Origin: a virus
Taxonomy: Duplodnaviria; Heunggongvirae; Uroviricota; Caudoviricetes
Length of the DNA stretch: 64,000 bases
Reading direction: 5' to 3' (one strand)
IMG/VR virus record: IMGVR_UViG_3300043433_000105
Location: 1 to 64,000 of that record
Numbering within the stretch: the stretch's first letter is position 1; each line of letters opens with the position of its first letter. The notes beneath the pieces are model-generated. The model worked only from the letters and a program-made list of their open reading frames with translations, had not been told where the DNA came from and did not search any database. Shown here piece after piece: positions 3,250-55,480 of this stretch. The translations under genes and the position numbers were made by a program.

Positions 3250-5277
3250 ATGAAACTCGTAACCAAACACTTTGATGAAAACCAAACTACAGATATCGCT
3301 ATCCCCATGCAGCGTATCGTCGTGGTTGACTGCTCTGGTTCCATGTATGGCGAACTGCCAAAGCTGCGCACTCAACTGAAAAACAAGCTGCCCACTATGG
3401 TAGCACCTGACGATACTCTGACCCTGATTTGGTTCTCTTCGCGTGGCGAGTGCGGCACCATTTTTGAAAATCTGAACATCACAAATGCAAAAGACTTGCA
3501 AGCGGTAAACACTGCTATTGATCGTTTCTTGGTTGCACGTGGCGCAACAGGCTTTAAAGACCCACTGGAAAAGGTTGTTGAATTGGCTATCGCTAGTTCT
3601 GATCGACCAGTTTCTTTGAACTTCATGACTGATGGTGGTGAAAATCAATCTTCGCGTTCTGAAATCATCAAGGTCTGCACCAAAGTTGCTGACACTGTTG
3701 CATCCTCTGTAGTGGTTTCTTATGGCTACTACGCTGATGACGCATTCCTAACCCAGATGGCAGAAGAAATGGGTGGTGAAATGATCGGCGCGGGTGACTT
3801 CCAATCGTATACCGATGTATTGACTCGTTCGCTGAATACTCGTGCTTCGGGTAAGCGCAAAATCGTTGAAGGCCTGCCTTTGGACACAATGATTGTGGGT
3901 CACATGGATGAAAGCTACGTGACTGCTAAAGCTGATGCATCCGGTAAAGTTGCTATGCCTTCCAACTGCATTGCATACTCATATTTCACCGGTTCTGGTG
4001 ACATTGCAGAAGTCGAAGACGAATTTGCTGCTGTGCAGGTTGTTGGTGCCTTGGTGCAACGTGGTGAGTCTGATAAGGCTTTGGAATTGTCTGGATTGAT
4101 CGGTGATGAAACTCTGTTCAATACCGTGCAGAATGCGTTCTCTAAGCAAGATTTTAACCGTGTGGTGGCCTTGGTTGGTGCTTACCATCCATTCGTTGAC
4201 AAACCCCGCAATCTGAAGTTGAAGCAAGACCCTAACGCATACAACGTGTTGACATTGCTGATGGATTTGGCAGACACCGAAGGTAACTTCCTGCATATTT
4301 CGCATCCAGAATTCAGCTACAGCGCAATCGGCGGTAAGCGTGAAACTGTTGCTGATGAAGGCGGCTTCAAGCCTGTTTTCTCTTCCAAAGAAGGTGAAGT
4401 GAAGGCTGCTATCAGCACATTGAAGTTTGACGAAGATCGGCCTAACGTGTCTATTCTGACTCGCCGCGAAGGTAGCGTTTCTTTGCCTAAAAATGAGTTG
4501 GGTTTTGGTGAATCGGTGGATAGTTTCATTTGGCGTAACTATGCTATCATTCGTGATGGTATCGTGAATGTGAAGAAACTGCCTGTTGTGCTGACCAAGG
4601 CAACTTATGACTTGCTGAAGCAAAACGGTATTCCTTTGGAGCCTTTCAAGGTCAACACCACATACGTGATTGACGTGTCTGGTATGCCTGTTATTAACCG
4701 CTCCATGGCTGCGCCTGTAACTGCTAAGGATATGTTCACATGGCAGTTTGATCTGTACAAACTGCGCGTCTCGCAAAAGATTTTGAATTCTCGTATTGAA
4801 AAGCCTGAATTCTCTGAAGACTTTGCTAAGAAGTATGGTGAAGACGGTGCTGCTTTCTTGAAGCAATATGGTGTAACACCTGGTGGTTTCTCTCCCAAGA
4901 CAACCAAGGGCGAAAGTGTTGATGCATACGTTGCAAAGGCACTGGAGATTAGTTTGTCTGGTTTGAACAGCATTCCTAAAATCTCTGATGTGGAAGCTGA
5001 TATCGCTGCTGGCAAGAATTTGACACCCGCTAAACAAGTGGTTGCAAAGGCTTTGAAGGATTTGGAACCTATCACTGATAACGAAGCTGCTCTCAAGATG
5101 CTGAAGGTCAATATCGCTATTCTGCGTGACAAGATCATCAAAGCAAAGTTTGGTGTGATTTTGGGTCGCAGAATCTTTACTGATATGACAAGTTGGGATG
5201 ATAATACTAAGACAATGGATTTTGGTCTTTCCAAGCCAATCAAAGCATCTGCTGAATTGGTTGATAAGGAAGTCTAA
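3250..5277 (+). CDS. von Willebrand factor A (vWA) domain protein, 675 aa
   Basis: N-terminal VVVDCSGSM (MIDAS DxSxS) motif followed by a large C-terminal extension. Confidence 0.7.
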   Translation: MKLVTKHFDENQTTDIAIPMQRIVVVDCSGSMYGELPKLRTQLKNKLPTMVAPDDTLTLIWFSSRGECGTIFENLNITNAKDLQAVNTAIDRFLVARGATGFKDPLEKVVELAIASSDRPVSLNFMTDGGENQSSRSEIIKVCTKVADTVASSVVVSYGYYADDAFLTQMAEEMGGEMIGAGDFQSYTDVLTRSLNTRASGKRKIVEGLPLDTMIVGHMDESYVTAKADASGKVAMPSNCIAYSYFTGSGDIAEVEDEFAAVQVVGALVQRGESDKALELSGLIGDETLFNTVQNAFSKQDFNRVVALVGAYHPFVDKPRNLKLKQDPNAYNVLTLLMDLADTEGNFLHISHPEFSYSAIGGKRETVADEGGFKPVFSSKEGEVKAAISTLKFDEDRPNVSILTRREGSVSLPKNELGFGESVDSFIWRNYAIIRDGIVNVKKLPVVLTKATYDLLKQNGIPLEPFKVNTTYVIDVSGMPVINRSMAAPVTAKDMFTWQFDLYKLRVSQKILNSRIEKPEFSEDFAKKYGEDGAAFLKQYGVTPGGFSPKTTKGESVDAYVAKALEISLSGLNSIPKISDVEADIAAGKNLTPAKQVVAKALKDLEPITDNEAALKMLKVNIAILRDKIIKAKFGVILGRRIFTDMTSWDDNTKTMDFGLSKPIKASAELVDKEV

Positions 5278-37510: not shown

Positions 37511-37548
37511 TTCCTTTTGAATTTCGATGAATGAATTATAACACAGTT
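37511..37548 (-). promoter_or_regulatory. early-type promoter/leader cassette
   Basis: Reverse complement TGTTATAATTCATTCATCGAAATTCAAAAGGAAAATT..ATG. Confidence 0.55.
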
Positions 37549-41813: not shown

Positions 41814-42093
41814 TTAGTCTGCGCTTCGATGTTTAACGCCCTTACGGGTTCCGCAGCACCTTTTAATACCCACCAGGGGAATTTGACCAACAAATAGTGG
41901 TGAAGTTTTTTACATTTCAGTTTTTGTAAAAATTCAACTGCTCGGGGTAAGATTTTGTGGATTCGGTTCGAAGAGTAACAATACCAGAACCATCACACAT
42001 TTCATACTGAACAAATCCTGCCAGAGTTTTTGACTTTCCTACAGCACTTGAGTTGAAGTCGATACGCTTACCACAATTTTTTAAGGAACCGTT

Positions 42094-42912
42094 ATGTCCA
42101 GCAAAACTATTTATTCATGCCACATCTGCGCTGCATCTTTTGACAGCAAAAGTGCTTTAGGTGGTCATCATGTTTCACACCGTAAAAAGAAATCGAAATT
42201 CGAAGATAAGGTGTGTTGTATTTTTACAAAGAAAATTTTCCATGTAAGAAATTTAGAAAAGTTCCAGCAAGGCTTAGTTGGAACCTATTCCGAAATTCAC
42301 AATTGTAAAGAGTGTCAGCGCCTAATATCTGTCGATAAAGAATTTTGTGGGTTTTCCTGCAGAGCAAAACATTTTAATGAAAAACGTAAAAACTCTAATT
42401 GGAAGCAAAGCGACTTCCAAAAGCAATCGGCATCGGATCACAGAAAAATAAAATCTGCCTTGAATAAAGGCGAAATATATATTGCGAAGTACACAAAAAT
42501 AAGTTGCAATGTATGTAAACTATGCGACTTTTATTGGGTTTCGCAGTCAAAGAAGAATATTTGCTCTGATTGTGAAAAAATAGATTTAAAAACAATCCAA
42601 CGAAAGAAAAGGTCGGAATACCTTTTTAATTTCGATGTTAAGAGCTATCCAGATTTATTCGATCTGAATATGGTTGAATCGATTGGGTGGTATTCACCAT
42701 CTAAAAAATATAATAGAAATCTGAATGGGTTGACCAAGGATCATATTATCTCAGTTTCAGACGCGATTAAAAACGACTACGACCCTTACTACATTAAACA
42801 CCCAATGAATTGCAAACTAATGCGACAATCAGACAATTCAAGGAAGAAAACAAAAAGTAGTATGTCATACAGTAAACTAAAAAGATTAGTTGAACTTTAT
42901 GACATGAGCTAA
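42094..42912 (+). CDS. zinc-finger HNH-type homing endonuclease-like protein (paralog 1, intact)
   Basis: N-terminal C2H2-like CHIC...H..H; C-terminal NGLTKDHIISVSDAIKNDYDPYYIKHPMNCKLMRQSDN (HNH-like). Confidence 0.55.
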   Translation: MSSKTIYSCHICAASFDSKSALGGHHVSHRKKKSKFEDKVCCIFTKKIFHVRNLEKFQQGLVGTYSEIHNCKECQRLISVDKEFCGFSCRAKHFNEKRKNSNWKQSDFQKQSASDHRKIKSALNKGEIYIAKYTKISCNVCKLCDFYWVSQSKKNICSDCEKIDLKTIQRKKRSEYLFNFDVKSYPDLFDLNMVESIGWYSPSKKYNRNLNGLTKDHIISVSDAIKNDYDPYYIKHPMNCKLMRQSDNSRKKTKSSMSYSKLKRLVELYDMS

Positions 42913-42926
42913 CGTTCCGTTTTGAA

Positions 42927-43196
42927 TTAATCGAACCAAATATCTTTGATCATAGGGATGCACCATGTATCAGGATAGTAGGTCATAGACCTCCATACAC
43001 CATCATGGCCTTTGAGGATATATCCATAGATACGAATACCATCTACTATGAAAATATCTACGAGTTTCATTTGATCACTTTCAACATAATATTCTGGTGG
43101 AGGTAACAGGAATCGAACCTGCGACCTACGACTTTCACTAAAAGATAAATATATGGTACTCACGAAATTAGCCGTTTCCAGTACCTCTAGCCACAT
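42927..43196 (-). CDS. hypothetical protein
   Basis: 89-aa ORF; 3' part overlaps the tRNA fragment. Confidence 0.25.
   Translation of the reverse strand: MWLEVLETANFVSTIYLSFSESRRSQVRFLLPPPEYYVESDQMKLVDIFIVDGIRIYGYILKGHDGVWRSMTYYPDTWCIPMIKDIWFD
43091..43138 (-). pseudogene. tRNA 3' fragment (T-arm + acceptor 3' strand + CCA)
   Basis: Reverse complement GTCGCAGGTTCGATTCCTGTTACCTCCACCA; no matching 5' half is adjacent. Confidence 0.4.
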
Positions 43197-43222
43197 TATA
43201 ACACAATTTCAAAGGAACTGCT

Positions 43223-44093
43223 ATGACCAGCAAAACTATTTATACATGCAAATTTTGCACCAAAACATTCACAACATTATTAGGTTTAAACGGTCATGCT
43301 AGAATGCATGGTAAATCTAATGGTAAAACAACATATCCCATTAGGGTTTGCTGTTTTTATACACGCAAAGTTGTTAGTGCTTCAAAATTAGAATCTTATC
43401 AACAAACATTATTAGGGTCAACATGCGGTGTTCATCCTTGTGACGGATGCGGCAATTTTATTTCAGATAGAACAAAATACTGCTCTGCGTCTTGTAGTGC
43501 GGCAATAACAAACAAAGATTACCTAAATCTCAAGAAACCAAAAACAAGATTTCACAAACTTTAAAAAACAAGCCTAAGAAATTAAAACCATTTGAGTTTA
43601 AACCAGTAAAAATAAAGAAAACTGATATTCTTGGACAATTCTCTAAACTTTTTCATTGCAAATGCTCACACTGCGGTGTTCTAAGTATAACACGAATAGC
43701 AAAGAAGTATTGTGAAACTTGCTCACCAATTTATTGTACAGAGCCAAGAAACAGATATAAATTTACATTCAATGTTTACAAATATCCCGACATTTTCGAC
43801 TTAGAACTTTTAACAAAAGTTGGTTTTTATGCACCAAGAGGTAAATCAGGCAGTTGGAATCCCAATGGGCTTTCCCGCGATCATAAAGTATCAGTCAATG
43901 ACGCACTGAAAAATAATTATGAACCATTTTACATTACACATCCATTAAATTGTGAATTAATGCCGCATCAACAAAATAACAAGAAAAAGAGTAAATCTTC
44001 AATTTCGTACTCAGAACTTGTTAAAATGGTTGATGACTATCAAAACACATTGCTCCAAGCCGAGGCATCGAACCTCGCCTAGAATTCCTTCCA
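43223..44093 (+). pseudogene. zinc-finger HNH homing endonuclease paralog 2, frameshifted
   Basis: ORF stops at 43564 in an A6 tract (cTTTAAAAAAc); the -1 frame continues through NGLSRDHKVSVNDALKNNYEPFYITHPLNCELM to 44093. Confidence 0.55.
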
Positions 44094-44147
44094 GTCCTCC
44101 GGTTAACAGCCGGGAGCCTTCACCAAGCCAGCACGCTTGGAGCAATA
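44059..44147 (-). tRNA. type-II tRNA (long variable arm; anticodon loop CTGTTAA, GUU?)
   Basis: Acceptor TCCAAGC/GCTTGGA, T-arm CGAGG-TTCGATG-CCTCG, 6-bp variable stem; isotype unresolved. Confidence 0.45.
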
Positions 44148-44172
44148 TGTTCTGTGGAATAAATTCTATTTG

Positions 44173-44248
44173 TAGCGGATACTGGATTTAAACCAGTGAC
44201 CTCTTGGTTATGAGCCAAGTGAGATAGATCGGGCTTCTCTAATCCGCA
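44173..44248 (-). tRNA. tRNA with CAU anticodon (Met/Ile2), mismatch at 1:72
   Basis: Anticodon arm CTTGG-CTCATAA-CCAAG; T-loop TTTAAAT; D-stem GAGA/TCTC. Confidence 0.5.
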
Positions 44249-44268
44249 ACAAATAAAACTCTACTTAT

Positions 44269-44457
44269 TCAACCATACCTTTTACCACAAAAAGATGGTG
44301 TGATATCAGAATCCTCAATGCGCTTGTTTAACTCAATTTTACTCGAATGCCTGTGTGCGCGTTCTTCAGTCTTCATAATTTTCTTAACACTGGAATATTT
44401 TTTTGCAAATTTACATTGGGTGCAAGAGCAAGATTTTGGTGTAGATTTATTTGACAT
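44269..44457 (-). CDS. small zinc-ribbon protein
   Basis: CSCTQC...C. Confidence 0.3.
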   Translation of the reverse strand: MSNKSTPKSCSCTQCKFAKKYSSVKKIMKTEERAHRHSSKIELNKRIEDSDITPSFCGKRYG

Positions 44458-44479
44458 TTGAATTCTTTCATATAAAACT

Positions 44480-44555
44480 TGGTACCCCGTACCGGATTTG
44501 AACCAGTGTACCCACCGTGAAAGGGTGGTGTCCTAGACCTCTAGACGAACGGGGC
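44480..44555 (-). tRNA. tRNA-Glu (UUC)
   Basis: Acceptor GCCCCGT/ACGGGGT, anticodon arm CCACC-CTTTCAC-GGTGG, T-arm ACTGG-TTCAAAT-CCGGT, encoded CCA. Confidence 0.7.
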
Positions 44556-44834
44556 ACATAAAAATTCGTGGTTAACTTGGGATTCTTACCCCAGACTTCA
44601 TTAAGAGTACGTTCAAACCATATACTCATGTCTATTTTCTATCAGTTGATCAGGCTGACATTAATTTGAAATTCGCTCTACATTCACAACTTTCGACTCA
44701 CTTGCACCAATTGATCTGTATGTTTGTGCCATTATAGCATATTGCTCTGCAATTTTCTTTGGGTCTTCTTGTTCATCGATCACATCAACTACAATTTCAA
44801 CCACAATCGCATATTTGCTCATTGTCATACTTAT

Positions 44835-45017
44835 TTACTTCTCAATTTTAACACAGCGCATGCTAGATGCATTACCATGTTTACCTTCAGTATCTTTTAT
44901 GAAGTCAACGATTGCTACCTTACACTTTTGTTCGCTCGAAAACTCAAGCGTTGGAACTACGTAGTTCCCAAAGTGACCATTTGAAACAACTGCGATTAAT
45001 ACCCATACTGTGTTCAT
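44835..45017 (-). CDS. hypothetical small protein
   Basis: Downstream of the cassette at 45018-45060. Confidence 0.3.
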   Translation of the reverse strand: MNTVWVLIAVVSNGHFGNYVVPTLEFSSEQKCKVAIVDFIKDTEGKHGNASSMRCVKIEK

Positions 45018-45081
45018 ACTTATTTACCTTTCGTTTTCGATGACTTAATTATAACACACAAATACTAACAAAACAACATTT

Positions 45082-45172
45082 TGGCGGAAAATATGCGATT
45101 CGAACACATGCTGCTATTTCTAACAGAACTTAGATTAGCAATCTAGTACCTTACCACTCGGTCAATTTTCCA
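45082..45172 (-). tRNA. tRNA-Ser (GCU), type II
   Basis: Acceptor GGAAAAT/ATTTTCC, T-arm ATGTG-TTCGAAT-CGCAT, anticodon loop TTGCTAA, about 20-nt variable arm. Confidence 0.55.
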
Positions 45173-45177
45173 CAGCT

Positions 45178-45255
45178 TGGGGTGTGATAACGGATTTGAA
45201 CCGTTGACCCTCGGAATCACAATCCGATGCTCTAACCAACTGAGCTAATCACACC
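45178..45255 (-). tRNA. tRNA-His (GUG)
   Basis: GGTGTGAttAGCTCAGTTGGTTAGAGCaTCGGAttGTGatTCCGAgggtcAACGGttcaaatCCGTT...CCCCA. Confidence 0.75.
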
Positions 45256-45582
45256 ATTATATTTCGAAGTTGACAACTTAACCGCAATCTCTCTCAACTT
45301 CTAGAACTGGCTTCAAGCGGTCTAACCATCCAGTTCTTTTTATTCTTTGAACGAATACACGGCGTTATTTGAGATCAAACCCATAACTTTTGTCGTTCAG
45401 CCAACTCTTTCCGCTATTGTTTGCTTTCATTACCCTACTGAACCGACTTCCTTTCGTAAACGTCACATCCAGCCACAGTTGAAATTATCGCCCGTACTTA
45501 GATATGAAGACCAGTTCTTTGCGCTCTGGCTCGGTTTCCATCTACTCTACTACTAACAAACAACTTAGTATTTCTACATTAT

Positions 45583-45658
45583 AACACAATTCTGGTGGGG
45601 CTGGATGGATTTGAACCACCGACGCGCAGAGCTTCAATCTGCCGCTCTACCAACTGAG
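45583..45658 (-). tRNA. tRNA-Phe (GAA)
   Basis: GGGGCTGtaGCTCAGTTGGTAGAGCgGCAGAttGAAgcTCTGCgcgtcGGTGGttcaaatCCATCCAGCCCCacca. Confidence 0.75.
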
Positions 45659-45666
45659 CTACAGCC

Positions 45667-45742
45667 CCCAAAATTATGGTGAGTCTTGACAGACTTGAAC
45701 TGCCGACCTATGCCGTGTAAGGGCACTGCTCTCCCAACTGAG
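45667..45742 (-). tRNA. tRNA-Val (UAC)
   Basis: GGGTCTTtaGCTCAGTTGGGAGAGCaGTGCCctTACacGGCATaggtcGGCAGttcaagtCTGTCAAGACTCacca. Confidence 0.7.
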
Positions 45743-45837
45743 CTAAAGACCCGTATTAGGACAAGATTCGCACTTGATAGAAGTCATTATACACCACTTC
45801 TGGTGTTTCTGCGGGATAATCTATCCGCGCCGAACTT

Positions 45838-45920
45838 TGGTGCTGGCGGTGAGACTCGAACTCACGTAGGTTTCCCGACGGCTTACAAAACCGTTGCAAT
45901 TGCCGCTATGCGACACCAGC
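45838..45920 (-). tRNA. tRNA-Thr (UGU) with an unusually long (12-nt) variable region
   Basis: Acceptor GCTGGTG/CGCCAGC, anticodon arm ACGGT-TTTGTAA-GCCGT, T-arm GTGAG-TTCGAGT-CTCAC, CCA. Confidence 0.6.
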
Positions 45921-46038
45921 TAATCTAACAATAATGGCATGCCGAGAAGGAGTTTAACCTCACCTCCTATCGCGAATAGGCGCTCTGACGTTGAGGATTT
46001 AGTTGCGCACCTCTTTAAGCTACCGACATATAAAACTT

Positions 46039-46114
46039 TGGCATACCCCGTAGGCATCGAACCTACAACCTTCGGATTTGGAATCCGACGCTCTGCCAGT
46101 TGAGCTAGAGATAT
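46039..46114 (-). tRNA. tRNA-Trp (CCA)
   Basis: Acceptor ATATCTC/GGGGTAT (G-U rich), D-arm GCTCAACTGGCAGAGC, anticodon TCGGA-TTCCAAA-TCCGA, T-arm GTAGG-TTCGATG-CCTAC. Confidence 0.6.
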
Positions 46115-46129
46115 ACATAAAATTCTTTG

Positions 46130-46202
46130 TCGGTGGGGATGGGTATGAACCACCAGCCTCTCGCAACCAAAACGCGAGTGTTCTATCTTGAACTACCCAC
46201 CG
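46130..46202 (-). tRNA. tRNA-Gln (UUG)
   Basis: Acceptor CGGTGGG/CCCACCG, D-stem GTTC/GAAC, anticodon TCGCG-TTTTGGT-TGCGA, T-loop TTCATAC; no encoded CCA. Confidence 0.6.
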
Positions 46203-46376
46203 ACAAAGAATTCTAAAATGGTCTCGGTAGAAGTGCTCGAAACTTCCCCTCATGCTCCCAAAGCACGTGCGCCGCCATCAACGCTTTACCGAGATTTAAT
46301 TATATCACACTTTTATAGAGTGTCAACTATTTATGCGTATCCAGAACCTTCGTTCATTTCAAATCCTTAAAATTTG

Positions 46377-46407
46377 TGGCAGGCCGTGTAGGATTCGAAC
46401 CTACGAC
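46377..46407 (-). pseudogene. tRNA 3' fragment (T-arm + acceptor 3' + CCA)
   Basis: Reverse complement GTAGGTTCGAATCCTACACGGCCTGCCA, fused to the same 90-bp block that precedes HNH paralogs 2 and 3. Confidence 0.35.
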
Positions 46408-46497
46408 TTTCACTAAAAGATAAATATATGGTACTCACGAAATTAGCCGTTTCCAGTACCTCTAGCCACATTATAACACAATTTCAAAGGAACTGCT

Positions 46498-47070
46498 ATG
46501 ACCAGCACAACTATTTACTCTTCACCAAAATGCTCTTGCGTAATATGCAAGAAAGAATACTCATCAAAGGGTATAAATTCTCATTTCTTATCTGAACATG
46601 GTACAGATGAAGAAAAGTTCAAAATGAGAAAAGGTGCAAAACTCGGAATGGAAGCAAACAACAAAATTAGAAAAGTTAAAGCAGCTTCCAAATTAGAGAA
46701 ACATACATACAACTACAATCTCTCGCCTAATTTTTGTAAACAATGTAATTGTAAAATTCCATTCAGTAAAAAATCAAATACATTCTGCTCAAAATCATGT
46801 TCCGCAACTTTCAAGAATTTATCAGAGGGTGCCAAAACAGAAGATTGCAAATTAAAAATATCCAAAAAGTTAACTGGTCGTAAAAGTACACATAAACGTG
46901 AAAAAATTTACGAGGGGCCATATACTCGTCTGGTTGGTTATTTCAGTGGCTCATGTGCAACAATTCTCAAGGGTGCTACCCTGTTGCTTCCTCAACCCGC
47001 GAAGGTTGATTTGCTGATTTTCTGGTTCTCTTTATACCGCACTGATACAAGCATTCCAGAAGACTTTTGA
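46498..47070 (+). CDS. zinc-finger HNH homing-endonuclease paralog 3 (C-terminally truncated/degenerate)
   Basis: N-terminus MTSTTIYSSPKCSCVICKKEY paralogous to 42094 and 43223; lacks the DH...N HNH tail. Confidence 0.45.
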   Translation: MTSTTIYSSPKCSCVICKKEYSSKGINSHFLSEHGTDEEKFKMRKGAKLGMEANNKIRKVKAASKLEKHTYNYNLSPNFCKQCNCKIPFSKKSNTFCSKSCSATFKNLSEGAKTEDCKLKISKKLTGRKSTHKREKIYEGPYTRLVGYFSGSCATILKGATLLLPQPAKVDLLIFWFSLYRTDTSIPEDF

Positions 47071-47750
47071 ATTCCAGTTCTTATTGATGCCCTTCTAAGA
47101 ACTGTAAATGTCACAACATGCCTTTGTCCGACTCTTTAAAGGCACAAGTCAGTCAGTTTTCCTGACTACAAGAATCCTCATACGAGAATCCTCTAACTTG
47201 CGTCTGACCTTGAGACATAAAATAATCAGCCATGCCAACTATTTGATCATCTTGTATCAGAATGGCTACTCCTAAGCCTACCTCCAACAGTAATTTCTAA
47301 AGAACTATTCAGCAATCAACTCGATCATTAATTGCTGTTGTGCTTATTATAGCACAGATTTAAAACTTATTCATCACGTTGAAAATGTAACACGTAAAAG
47401 AATACTGCGATTAGTGCCGAAACGGTTTGGTTAAAAACATCAACACTTGAAATAGGGCTTTCAATAACATGATCAAAAAACAATTTCGTAATAAAGCCTG
47501 CCAAAGAATAGCAGATAGCAAACCCAATAAAAGTTTTCCATTTTTGTTGCATATATTATCCTTGTTTAAACTGGCAACCATCACGACCCATCAGAACTGC
47601 ACGATTAATGCAGTTATAGATAGCACTCTTCATTGCCTTTGTCCCACCACTAATCAGTGCATCAAAGATTTCTATCATGCACTCATCAACGAATTGCTTA
47701 AACGTTCCATCGTATTTCATAGCGAACCTATTTTGTTTTCGATGTGCTTA

Positions 47751-51603: not shown

Positions 51604-51736
51604 TTTAATTCCTTCATTATATTTACTTACTTACACAATATCAGTTGTACCAAAGTAGGAATCGAACCTACGTTGCGACCTCAAGACGGGTACGTATCCT
51701 TGCCTCTAGATGATTTGGTACGTTTTCTTTATTCTA

Positions 51737-55351: not shown

Positions 55352-55377
55352 CACTTAACTCTATTGTAACACAAATT

Positions 55378-55465
55378 TGCCAGAGTGGATTCGAACCACC
55401 AAATATCTTTCGATATTTTTTGCAGGGCTTTCACCTGCGACTCTACCTCATTTCGTCCACTAGCA
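55378..55465 (-). ncRNA. tRNA-like RNA with T-arm and long hairpin, non-canonical
   Basis: T-arm GGTGG-TTCGAAT-CCACT; hairpin AAATATC-GAAAG-ATATTT; no acceptor pairing found. Confidence 0.25.
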
Positions 55466-55480
55466 AAACTTTATATATGA

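Follow-up and report, generated by a model that had tools for sequence, protein, structure and literature searches.

How did two nearly identical blocks of DNA in the tRNA array of a large phage come to lie between the 3' end of a tRNA gene and the start of a zinc-finger protein gene? The question is raised by a 64,000-nt stretch of a Caudoviricetes genome (IMG/VR record IMGVR_UViG_3300043433_000105, positions 1 to 64,000), called here the window; its coordinates carry the prefix W where they stand beside those of the fetched comparison loci (L001, L002 and so on). ARAGORN called 18 tRNA genes in the window, every one of them on the minus strand; interspersed with these are three paralogous plus-strand open reading frames (ORFs), g1, g2 and g3 (Table 1). 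We consider it probable that mobile endonuclease cassettes scar tRNA genes, and that the window holds second-generation scars together with dead genes.

A repeat search of the window revealed one long direct repeat, whose two copies are identical at 118 of 119 nt (99%); the 53-nt core of the repeat has exactly two occurrences, the number expected from shuffles being 0.00. Thus the duplicated near-identical block noticed in the preliminary description (43139-43222 and 46408-46497) is real and longer than stated, reaching 9 nt further to the left and 20 nt into the coding sequence. In the phage collection, near-identical DNA was represented by only tRNA-sized chance matches. Each copy is located directly upstream of one of the paralogous genes, the block within it ending at the start codon of g2 or g3, and its far side adjoins a tRNA 3' end that is read on the minus strand and differs between the copies. 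No cloverleaf including these T-arms was found over 43095-43125 or 46377-46406, either by ARAGORN, run without introns or with introns of up to 1400 nt, or by the tRNA covariance model of Rfam (RF00005) at E<=1. This confirms the earlier observation that each block is fused to a tRNA 3' fragment with no matching 5' half nearby, and indeed no 5' halves are present in the window.

Comparison with the intact tRNAs of relatives identified one of the fragments and left the other, fragment X, unassigned. W46377-46406 is identical over 30 nt (100%) to the 3' end of an intact tRNA-Gln in L002 (5701-5778); fragment X has no close match among the 522 tRNAs of the fetched loci. The complement of the acceptor strand of the Gln-type fragment was not found anywhere in the window, and that of fragment X has one site, at 47279, 4 kb off, which is approximately the chance level for a 7-mer. 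On the minus strand, 47264-47285 consists of this sole complement followed by a D-arm-like hairpin, and might represent the missing 5' portion of tRNA X, at the same chance level of evidence. When fragment X was concatenated with it, 8 of 1800 joins produced tRNA calls of low quality, in which the anticodon arm was made of block sequence, and the candidate was set aside as a weak hint only.

The relatives L002, L003, and L066 retain both sides of such a scar. There the far end of the block is also fused to a tRNA 3' fragment, and the complement of the acceptor strand, followed by a D-arm, is found directly after the stop codon of the gene or overlapping it: CCTGTCC to the left of the block and GGACAGG with the D-arm right after the stop codon in L002, TAAGGGA and TCCCTTA in the same arrangement in L003. 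The interrupted gene of L002 is a tRNA-Tyr, which has, relative to the intact gene in L067 (3758-3841), two mismatches in its 26-nt 5' part and two compensatory changes in the T-stem, and that of L003 is a tRNA-Asn with one mismatch in 26 nt to L025 (1644-1719). In both cases the homology that starts at position 1 is lost after about position 26 and is regained in the variable loop, immediately ahead of the T-stem. The flanking scars thus correspond to tRNA positions 1-26 and about 45-76, and the anticodon arm (positions ~27-44; in tRNA-Tyr, the long variable arm as well) is replaced by an antisense cassette of ~0.9-1 kb. L066 probably has the block and gene inside a tRNA gene too, as its flanks indicate. 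The orphan fragments of L002, L003, L066, and Cronobacter phage GAP32 (L069, NC_019401) gave no Rfam tRNA match at E<=5. A scan of 55 distinct family genes detected exact 7-nt split-tRNA matches only in L002 and L003, and orphan T-arms without a convincing partner in GAP32 and L030.

An intron-containing tRNA was considered for L002 and L003 and rejected, as the long-intron models of ARAGORN require forced anticodon stems of 2-3 bp and no tRNA or intron is recognised by Rfam; long-intron calls were not used as evidence at all, because they include many chimeric false positives in tRNA arrays. A split tRNA of the Nanoarchaeum type was rejected as well, given that the window lacks 5' halves and the relatives lack the anticodon arm. 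Since this arm is deleted and not split, splicing could not restore a tRNA; the tRNA genes of L002 and L003 are destroyed, being neither intron-containing nor split. The arrangement resembles the group I introns of bacterial tRNA anticodon loops in that a tRNA is interrupted in the anticodon region by ~0.9-1 kb of DNA encoding an endonuclease, and differs from them in the antisense orientation of the gene, in the deletion of the anticodon arm, and in the absence of any Rfam match to group I or group II introns. The same block and gene occur beside or inside different tRNAs in the window, L002, L003, L066, L073, and L001, and the syntenic stretch of L001 lacks g1. Such variable flanks, combined with presence or absence at syntenic loci, are characteristic of homing-endonuclease genes.

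The preliminary description proposed homing or illegitimate recombination into the T-stems of tRNA genes. Indeed, this type of cassette inserts in tRNA genes in L002 and L003, and both window junctions fall in a T-stem or variable loop; however, these junctions are best read, from the alignments, as secondary products of a deletion between two T-arms and of copying between paralogues, in preference to primary insertion sites. In L002, the intact tRNA-Gln is followed by a spacer of ~100 nt, the Tyr 3' fragment, the block, and the g3 orthologue, and the T-arm of the Tyr fragment is identical to that of tRNA-Gln over 19 nt. In the window, the match to the 3' end of this tRNA-Gln and the match to the L002 block region (W46388-46567) overlap in the same 19-nt T-arm. 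Recombination between the two identical T-arms of an L002-like ancestor would have deleted the 5' part of tRNA-Gln (two-thirds of the tRNA), the spacer, and the Tyr acceptor strand, creating the junction at copy 2.

Copy 1 would have a different origin. It is homologous to the L073 orthologue of g2 only from TAAATA (W43146) onward, and the 22 nt to the left of this motif (ACCTACGACTTTCACTAAAAGA) recur only in copy 2 and L002, and run on into the T-arm there. Around the start codons of g2 and g3, the first 52 nt are only 73-81% identical to the g1 reference. Taken together with the 99% identity of the two copies, these observations argue for a recent copying of the g3 upstream tract onto the g2 locus. 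Approximately 119 nt would have been transferred, with the right end in the conserved first codons and the left end at an out-of-register join in the variable-loop/T-stem region of another tRNA, where, on the minus strand, AAAGTCGTAGGT of the donor meets CGCAGGTTCGATT; the identity between the copies ends 2 nt into the GTC of fragment X. The order and direction of the two events and their mechanism, either break repair or template switching, we infer from these alignments.

Both junctions might alternatively be ascribed to misassembly of the metagenomic contig through the 119-nt repeat, and a near-identical repeat of this length is in principle a hazard for short-read assemblers; the window belongs to an 85.9-kb contig assembled from a JGI metagenome. 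However, with two direct copies along a single linear path the flanks can follow in one order only, and swapping could not create a false junction. Moreover, the two copies differ at one position, and independent contigs reproduce both the block/T-arm junction (L002) and the order of block, g2, and tRNA-Asn (L073). An assembly artefact is hardly credible here.

Two of the three genes are dead. An intact orthologue of g2 exists in L073 (8417-9280, 287 amino acids; 85.5% DNA identity over W43146-44165), and in comparison with it g2 has a 4-nt deletion after ~43513, which accounts for the change of frame. The homology of g3 to its full-length orthologue P0022 stops at ~46920 (amino acids 1-136, 46498-46920), and no remnant of the nuclease domain of P0022 was detected beyond this point. 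Therefore both block-led genes are pseudogenes, and only g1, which has no block, is intact. The previously suggested role of the block in driving paralogous zinc-finger HNH genes is thus correct as to paralogy and, by motif and fold class, as to the HNH-like character of the genes, but it concerns genes that no longer encode complete proteins. Decay is the usual end of the homing-endonuclease life cycle. In place of the lost 3' part of g3, W46921-47350 has no homologue in any fetched locus and contains a TGTGCTATAAT motif (47346-47356) and a terminator-like hairpin (47310-47337). The insertion of g1 truncated a neighbouring gene; the remnant of this gene ends exactly at the start of g1 and looks like collateral damage.

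The assignment of the encoded proteins required several lines of evidence. Pfam detected in g1-g3 only a sub-threshold N-terminal C2H2 finger; PHROGs assigned g1 and the latter half of g2 to phrog_23051 ('unknown function') and had no match for g3; and neither collection gave a GIY-YIG match for any of the three genes. A database search yielded 41 homologues, for which no source gives a functional name. Their alignment contains the C2H2 finger, two Zn-ribbon-like units (CxxC...C), a NUMOD3-like 'ETKxKIS' stretch, and an invariant C-terminal motif, NPNGxxRDH(K/I)xS ... YxxH..NC.LM ... N..K, with D216-H217, N239, and N248 invariant across 28-42 homologues. Motifs of the 'ETKxKIS' type were seen by eye in g2, g3, and L073, and NUMOD3 was detected by Pfam in three of 28 members (best E=0.0015). 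A profile search of the PDB sequences supported the C2H2 finger (E=1e-6) and returned no match for the C-terminal domain.

A full-length structure model compared with the PDB was uninformative because of its flexible multi-domain geometry (predicted template modelling score 0.43), and a model of the C-terminal domain only was used instead. This model of 104 residues (predicted local distance difference test score 94.7) places D-H at the end of one strand and the two asparagines on the next strand and helix. The invariant residues thus occupy the strand-strand-helix elements of the beta-beta-alpha-metal fold with an H-N-N motif by which the HNH superfamily is defined, and nearly all of the 48 Foldseek matches of the model are HNH or other beta-beta-alpha-metal nucleases. 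We accept, at the level of fold class only, that the family comprises predicted HNH-like (H-N-N) nucleases with zinc-finger/NUMOD DNA-binding modules; it is outside every curated HNH family. Like the enzymes of the I-HmuI type, it has the H-N-N variant of the HNH motif, here with putative NUMOD3-type DNA-binding modules; unlike intron-encoded I-HmuI, it is accompanied by no intron ribozyme in Rfam, and its N-terminal C2H2 finger is unusual for phage homing endonucleases.

The conservation of the block across loci suggests that it is to be read as the endonuclease gene's own mobile expression module. It precedes endonuclease genes in nine independent sequences, the window (two copies), L002, L003, L066, L001, L073, L074, L071, and L070, and is also found in L004-6 (alongside L003) and L072 (alongside L071); the modules of L073, L074, L071/L072, and L070 were located by a degenerate pattern. 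The exact 31-nt hairpin pattern had no match in IMG/VR or the JGI metagenomes searched, collections that do not contain even the window's own contig. The invariant parts are TAAATA, a two-step hairpin, CTCTAG, and the ribosome-binding site (RBS), and the protein often starts with MTSxxIY. In the hairpin, all 90 of 90 cells of the nine sequences are paired, and four pairs change on both sides; the cells changed on both sides number 16 versus 5.0 in shuffles, none of 500 shuffles reaching 16, and in controls slid along the sequence only 36-53% of cells are paired. As all pairs are Watson-Crick, they do not indicate the strand; the hairpin probably forms the 5' end of the mRNA. Rfam detected no group I or II intron and no known RNA family in the block, the fragments, or the cassette. 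TAAATA was also considered as a T4-type late promoter, and was not equated with it because the octamer TATAAATA occurs just once in the window.

The module travels with the gene even in L070, where no tRNAs occur. By eye, it heads nuclease genes of other types as well, GIY-YIG-like in L071, PD-(D/E)XK-like in L074, and an 'ENHH'-type HNH in L070; the one confirmation by Pfam for these genes was NUMOD3, in the protein of L071. Endonuclease genes of several types thus appear to share a portable 5' module with promoter and hairpin.

In the preliminary description, TATAAC near the end of the block was regarded as part of the leader of the downstream gene. On the minus strand this sequence is TGTGTTATAAT, an extended -10-like motif that is more likely an outward-facing promoter. 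The motif TGTGNTATAAT, a candidate early-promoter consensus of this phage, has 14 occurrences in the window where 0.30 would be expected, 13 of the 14 on the minus strand and one with a perfect TTGACA upstream (further sites are, for example, at 37535, 41209, 45048, 45578, 46299, 47346, 52407, 55776, and 57889). Given this excess, mostly on the minus strand, the block of the window would also carry an early-type promoter facing toward the tRNA genes; promoter activity on either strand is predicted from these motifs. The -10 motif is not conserved in L066, L073, and L074.

A minus-strand promoter in the block invites the idea that the block turns tRNA genes into promoter-driven 'tRNA 3'-half' genes, whose transcripts would consist of a leader followed by the T-arm, the acceptor strand, and CCA, and would either be joined to a separate 5' half as split-tRNA partners or act alone as a minihelix or decoy, for example for host tRNA-targeting nucleases or 3'-end-modifying enzymes. 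A perfect copy of TGTGNTATAAT is indeed located on the tRNA strand ~60 nt upstream of each fragment, both fragments retain an intact T-arm and an encoded CCA, and in L002 the sequence after the 5' part is complementary over 9 bp to that before the 3' part (as read from the sequence, with no statistics). However, there are no 5' halves in the window to be joined, and the anticodon arm is missing in L002 and L003, so that no decoding tRNA could be rebuilt. Furthermore, the lack of conservation of the -10 motif in three relatives speaks against such transcripts, the fragment sequence differs at every locus whereas the block is conserved, and the putative transcripts fold no better than shuffles (z = -0.16 and -1.10). 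We find such functional RNAs very unlikely.

The relationship between this family and tRNA genes extends far beyond the window. The 59 IMG/VR loci with a homologue represent 49 distinct genes; all but one of these (48) have tRNAs within 3 kb, and in 31 a tRNA overlaps the gene or starts <=30 nt after its stop codon. Among the nearest downstream tRNAs within 100 nt of the stop codon (n=32), 21 are antisense and 11 are sense, and the commonest tRNA neighbours of the family are those for Gly, Met, and Asn. The C-terminal tails of several homologues are T-arms translated antisense. In GAP32, the member GAP32_407 (~2123-2926), annotated as 'hypothetical protein', overlaps tRNA-Met with its 3' end, and an orphan T-arm (ACAGG-TTCGATT-CCTGT, ~2024-2054) is located 77 nt upstream of its start; this phage is a cultured system where the family could be tested.

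It could be argued that the endonuclease genes are mere passengers of tRNA arrays, which would serve as dispensable, repeat-rich 'safe harbours'. The D- and T-arm sequences would promote ectopic recombination by the phage machinery, the fragments and the duplication would be its by-products, and the endonucleases would not target tRNA DNA. Consistent with this, copy 2 can be explained by the two identical 19-nt T-arms with no site-specific break, orphan T-arms abound in these arrays at a distance from the endonuclease genes as well, four block-bearing cassettes (L073, L001, L070, and L071) have no tRNA fragment, and the 5' module occurs outside tRNA arrays, as in L070. Nevertheless, the genes, with the stop codons of 31 of 49 at or within 30 nt of a tRNA and 48 in arrays, are placed too specifically to be passengers, two different tRNAs have the same segment (positions ~27-44) replaced by the cassette, and SegB of phage T4 provides a precedent for an enzyme that cuts T-loop DNA (PMC2330249). 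The abutment on stop codons and the repeated replacement of the same segment therefore favour a specific relationship, and the passenger explanation appears rather unlikely to us.

The preferred reading, mobile cassettes that scar tRNA genes, can be formulated as follows. Three paralogous genes, putatively of free-standing homing endonucleases, lie antisense in the tRNA array of a large phage, encoding, in this order, a C2H2 zinc finger, Zn ribbons with a NUMOD3-like helix, and a C-terminal H-N-N beta-beta-alpha-metal nuclease domain. The cassettes would insert into tRNA genes and leave flanking scars, these scars would then be reshuffled in the window genome, and the block-led genes g2 and g3 would decay afterwards. 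The nuclease would make the initiating breaks in tRNA-gene DNA, and cleavage of tRNA genes is suggested by the location of the genes and by analogy with T4 SegB (PMC2330249).

In this formulation we take as established the repeat, the fragments, the conservation and covariation of the block, the split tRNAs of the relatives, the pseudogenes, the link to tRNA arrays, and the HNH-like fold class. Several points, together with the four fragment-free cassettes named above, weigh against it. The comparators are all metagenomic contigs of 60-90% identity and not sister genomes, and among the 55 genes scanned clean split-tRNA flanks are confined to the block-bearing subgroup (L002, L003, and probably L066). 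The structural matches are individually weak (best Foldseek E=0.47), and the curated HNH profile was not reached (Pfam PF01844, E=0.69, 10.5 bits versus a cutoff of 21.4).

Related systems are known from other phages. SegB is a GIY-YIG homing endonuclease encoded in the T4 tRNA cluster, with a 27-bp site that contains the T-loop motif GGTTCRANTCC and a preferred site in a tRNA-Asn gene, and the tRNA cluster of phage T5 contains the HNH endonuclease ORFs F-TflI, F-TflII, and F-TflIV (PMC2330249). Through microhomology, SegB drives tRNA segments to rearrange and amplify, leaving behind segB copies that are truncated, and a genome-wide statistical association links its homologues to tRNAs (PMC13096335). 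The present family is similar to SegB in that free-standing endonuclease genes reside within phage tRNA clusters, and different in fold (GIY-YIG in SegB, H-N-N beta-beta-alpha-metal here) and in arrangement, segB being in sense orientation between tRNA genes, whereas the present genes are mostly antisense and in some relatives lie inside a tRNA gene and destroy it. With F-TflI, F-TflII, and F-TflIV it has in common the HNH superfamily and the location in a phage tRNA cluster, but no detectable sequence relationship, and the C2H2 finger and Zn ribbons set it apart. The T5 enzymes are site-specific nicking enzymes, and we know of no description of insertion into tRNA genes for T5. In contrast to both systems, this nuclease family is unannotated and its 5' module is common to several nuclease families; it is therefore distinct from the tRNA-cluster endonucleases of T4 and T5, but of the same general kind. 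Within the literature searched, we found no paper on this nuclease family or on split pseudo-tRNAs flanking an endonuclease gene.

The family appears to be dedicated to tRNA arrays; its members encoded by GAP32, Serratia BF, Erwinia SNUABM, Lak phages, and numerous large phages from metagenomes are annotated as hypothetical proteins. For SegB, recent work has demonstrated a remodelling of tRNA loci through which host defences fail. If the enzymes described here do cut tRNA-gene DNA, they would represent a second, independent way of homing to short DNA motifs that are the most highly conserved in biology, and would help to account for the mosaic structure of phage tRNA arrays and for their many pseudo-tRNAs.

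Table 1. Positions of the genes, repeat copies, blocks, tRNA fragments, and associated motifs (window coordinates unless a locus is named)
Feature	Position	Strand	Remarks
g1	42094-42912	+	intact, 272 amino acids; C2H2 zinc finger, Zn ribbons, C-terminal H-N-N nuclease-like domain; no block upstream
g2, pseudogene	43223-44082	+	43223-43564, then other frame to 44082; 3' end overlaps tRNA-Asn gene antisense
g3, truncated paralogue	46498-47070	+	nuclease domain missing
Repeat copy 1	43124-43242		9 nt of T-stem/variable-loop sequence native to g3 locus, 90-nt block, first 20 nt of g2 coding sequence
Repeat copy 2, putative donor	46399-46517		orthologous to region upstream of L002 gene (W46388-46567 = L002 5891-6070, 89%)
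Block copy 1	43133-43222	+	TAAATA 43146-43151; hairpin 43155-43185; CTCTAG 43185-43190; RBS AAGGA; ATG 43223
Block copy 2	46408-46497	+	TAAATA 46421-46426; hairpin 46430-46460; CTCTAG 46460-46465; RBS; ATG 46498
Orphan fragment X, unassigned tRNA	43095-43125	-	GTC-GCAGG-TTCGATT-CCTGT-TACCTCC-A-CCA (GTC, T-arm, acceptor strand, A, CCA)
Orphan fragment of tRNA-Gln(UUG)	46377-46406	-	GTAGG-TTCGAAT-CCTAC-ACGGCCT-G-CCA at 46377-46404 (T-arm, acceptor, G, CCA)
TGTGTTATAAT, extended -10 promoter-like, copy 1	43195-43205	-	faces away from g2, toward tRNA fragment and small ORF
TGTGTTATAAT, extended -10-like, copy 2	46470-46480	-	same motif
Small ORF	42927-43070	-	47 amino acids from internal ATG (MKLVDIF...); directly downstream (minus strand) of fragment X
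3' gene remnant	41917-42075	-	parent intact in L001 (849-1256); 82% over 163 nt; no ORF here
Atypical tRNA-Asn(GUU)	44054-44136	-	83 nt, long variable arm; called by ARAGORN only, not Rfam; overlapped by 3' end of g2
Module before other nuclease type, L071	2585-2662	-	two of the three genes of other type start MTSxxIY
Module before other nuclease type, L074	90-1033
Module before other nuclease type, L070	1578-1653	-

Other elements of the array have counterparts in the relatives. The small ORF is conserved in L001 (80% over 140 nt), and tRNA-Asn(GUU) neighbours the gene in L073 and L001 as well. The region of this tRNA (44041-44154) is enclosed in a 20-bp extended helix (z = -5.3), and its L001 orthologue (3725-3829) reaches 56.7 bits in Rfam despite an insertion of 32 nt in its anticodon region. 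Similarly, a 20-nt inverted repeat extends the acceptor stem of tRNA-Gln 46129-46202 to ~20 bp (region 46118-46215, z = -7.8), which suggests an unusual precursor-processing signal common to these two tRNAs.

Two non-coding stretches, each without an ORF or an Rfam match, are conserved in L001. The first, W41790-41895 on the minus strand (L001 2682-2786), is an element of ~105 nt with 85% identity, the closing stem of which covaries (GTTGG/CCAAC versus GAGGGC/GCCTTC); it is directly beside the block in L001 and upstream of g1 in the window. The second, W45341-45591 (L001 4765-4986), is ~250 nt long, 81% identical, located between tRNA-Phe and tRNA-His behind a TGTGTTATAAT motif (45578-45588), and could be a new stable RNA of the tRNA cluster. 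In addition, a weak tRNA at 51647-51720 (33 bits) was called by Rfam alone, and tRNA-Pro 46219-46293 and a 93-nt tRNA-Phe(AAA) at 55375-55467 by ARAGORN alone.

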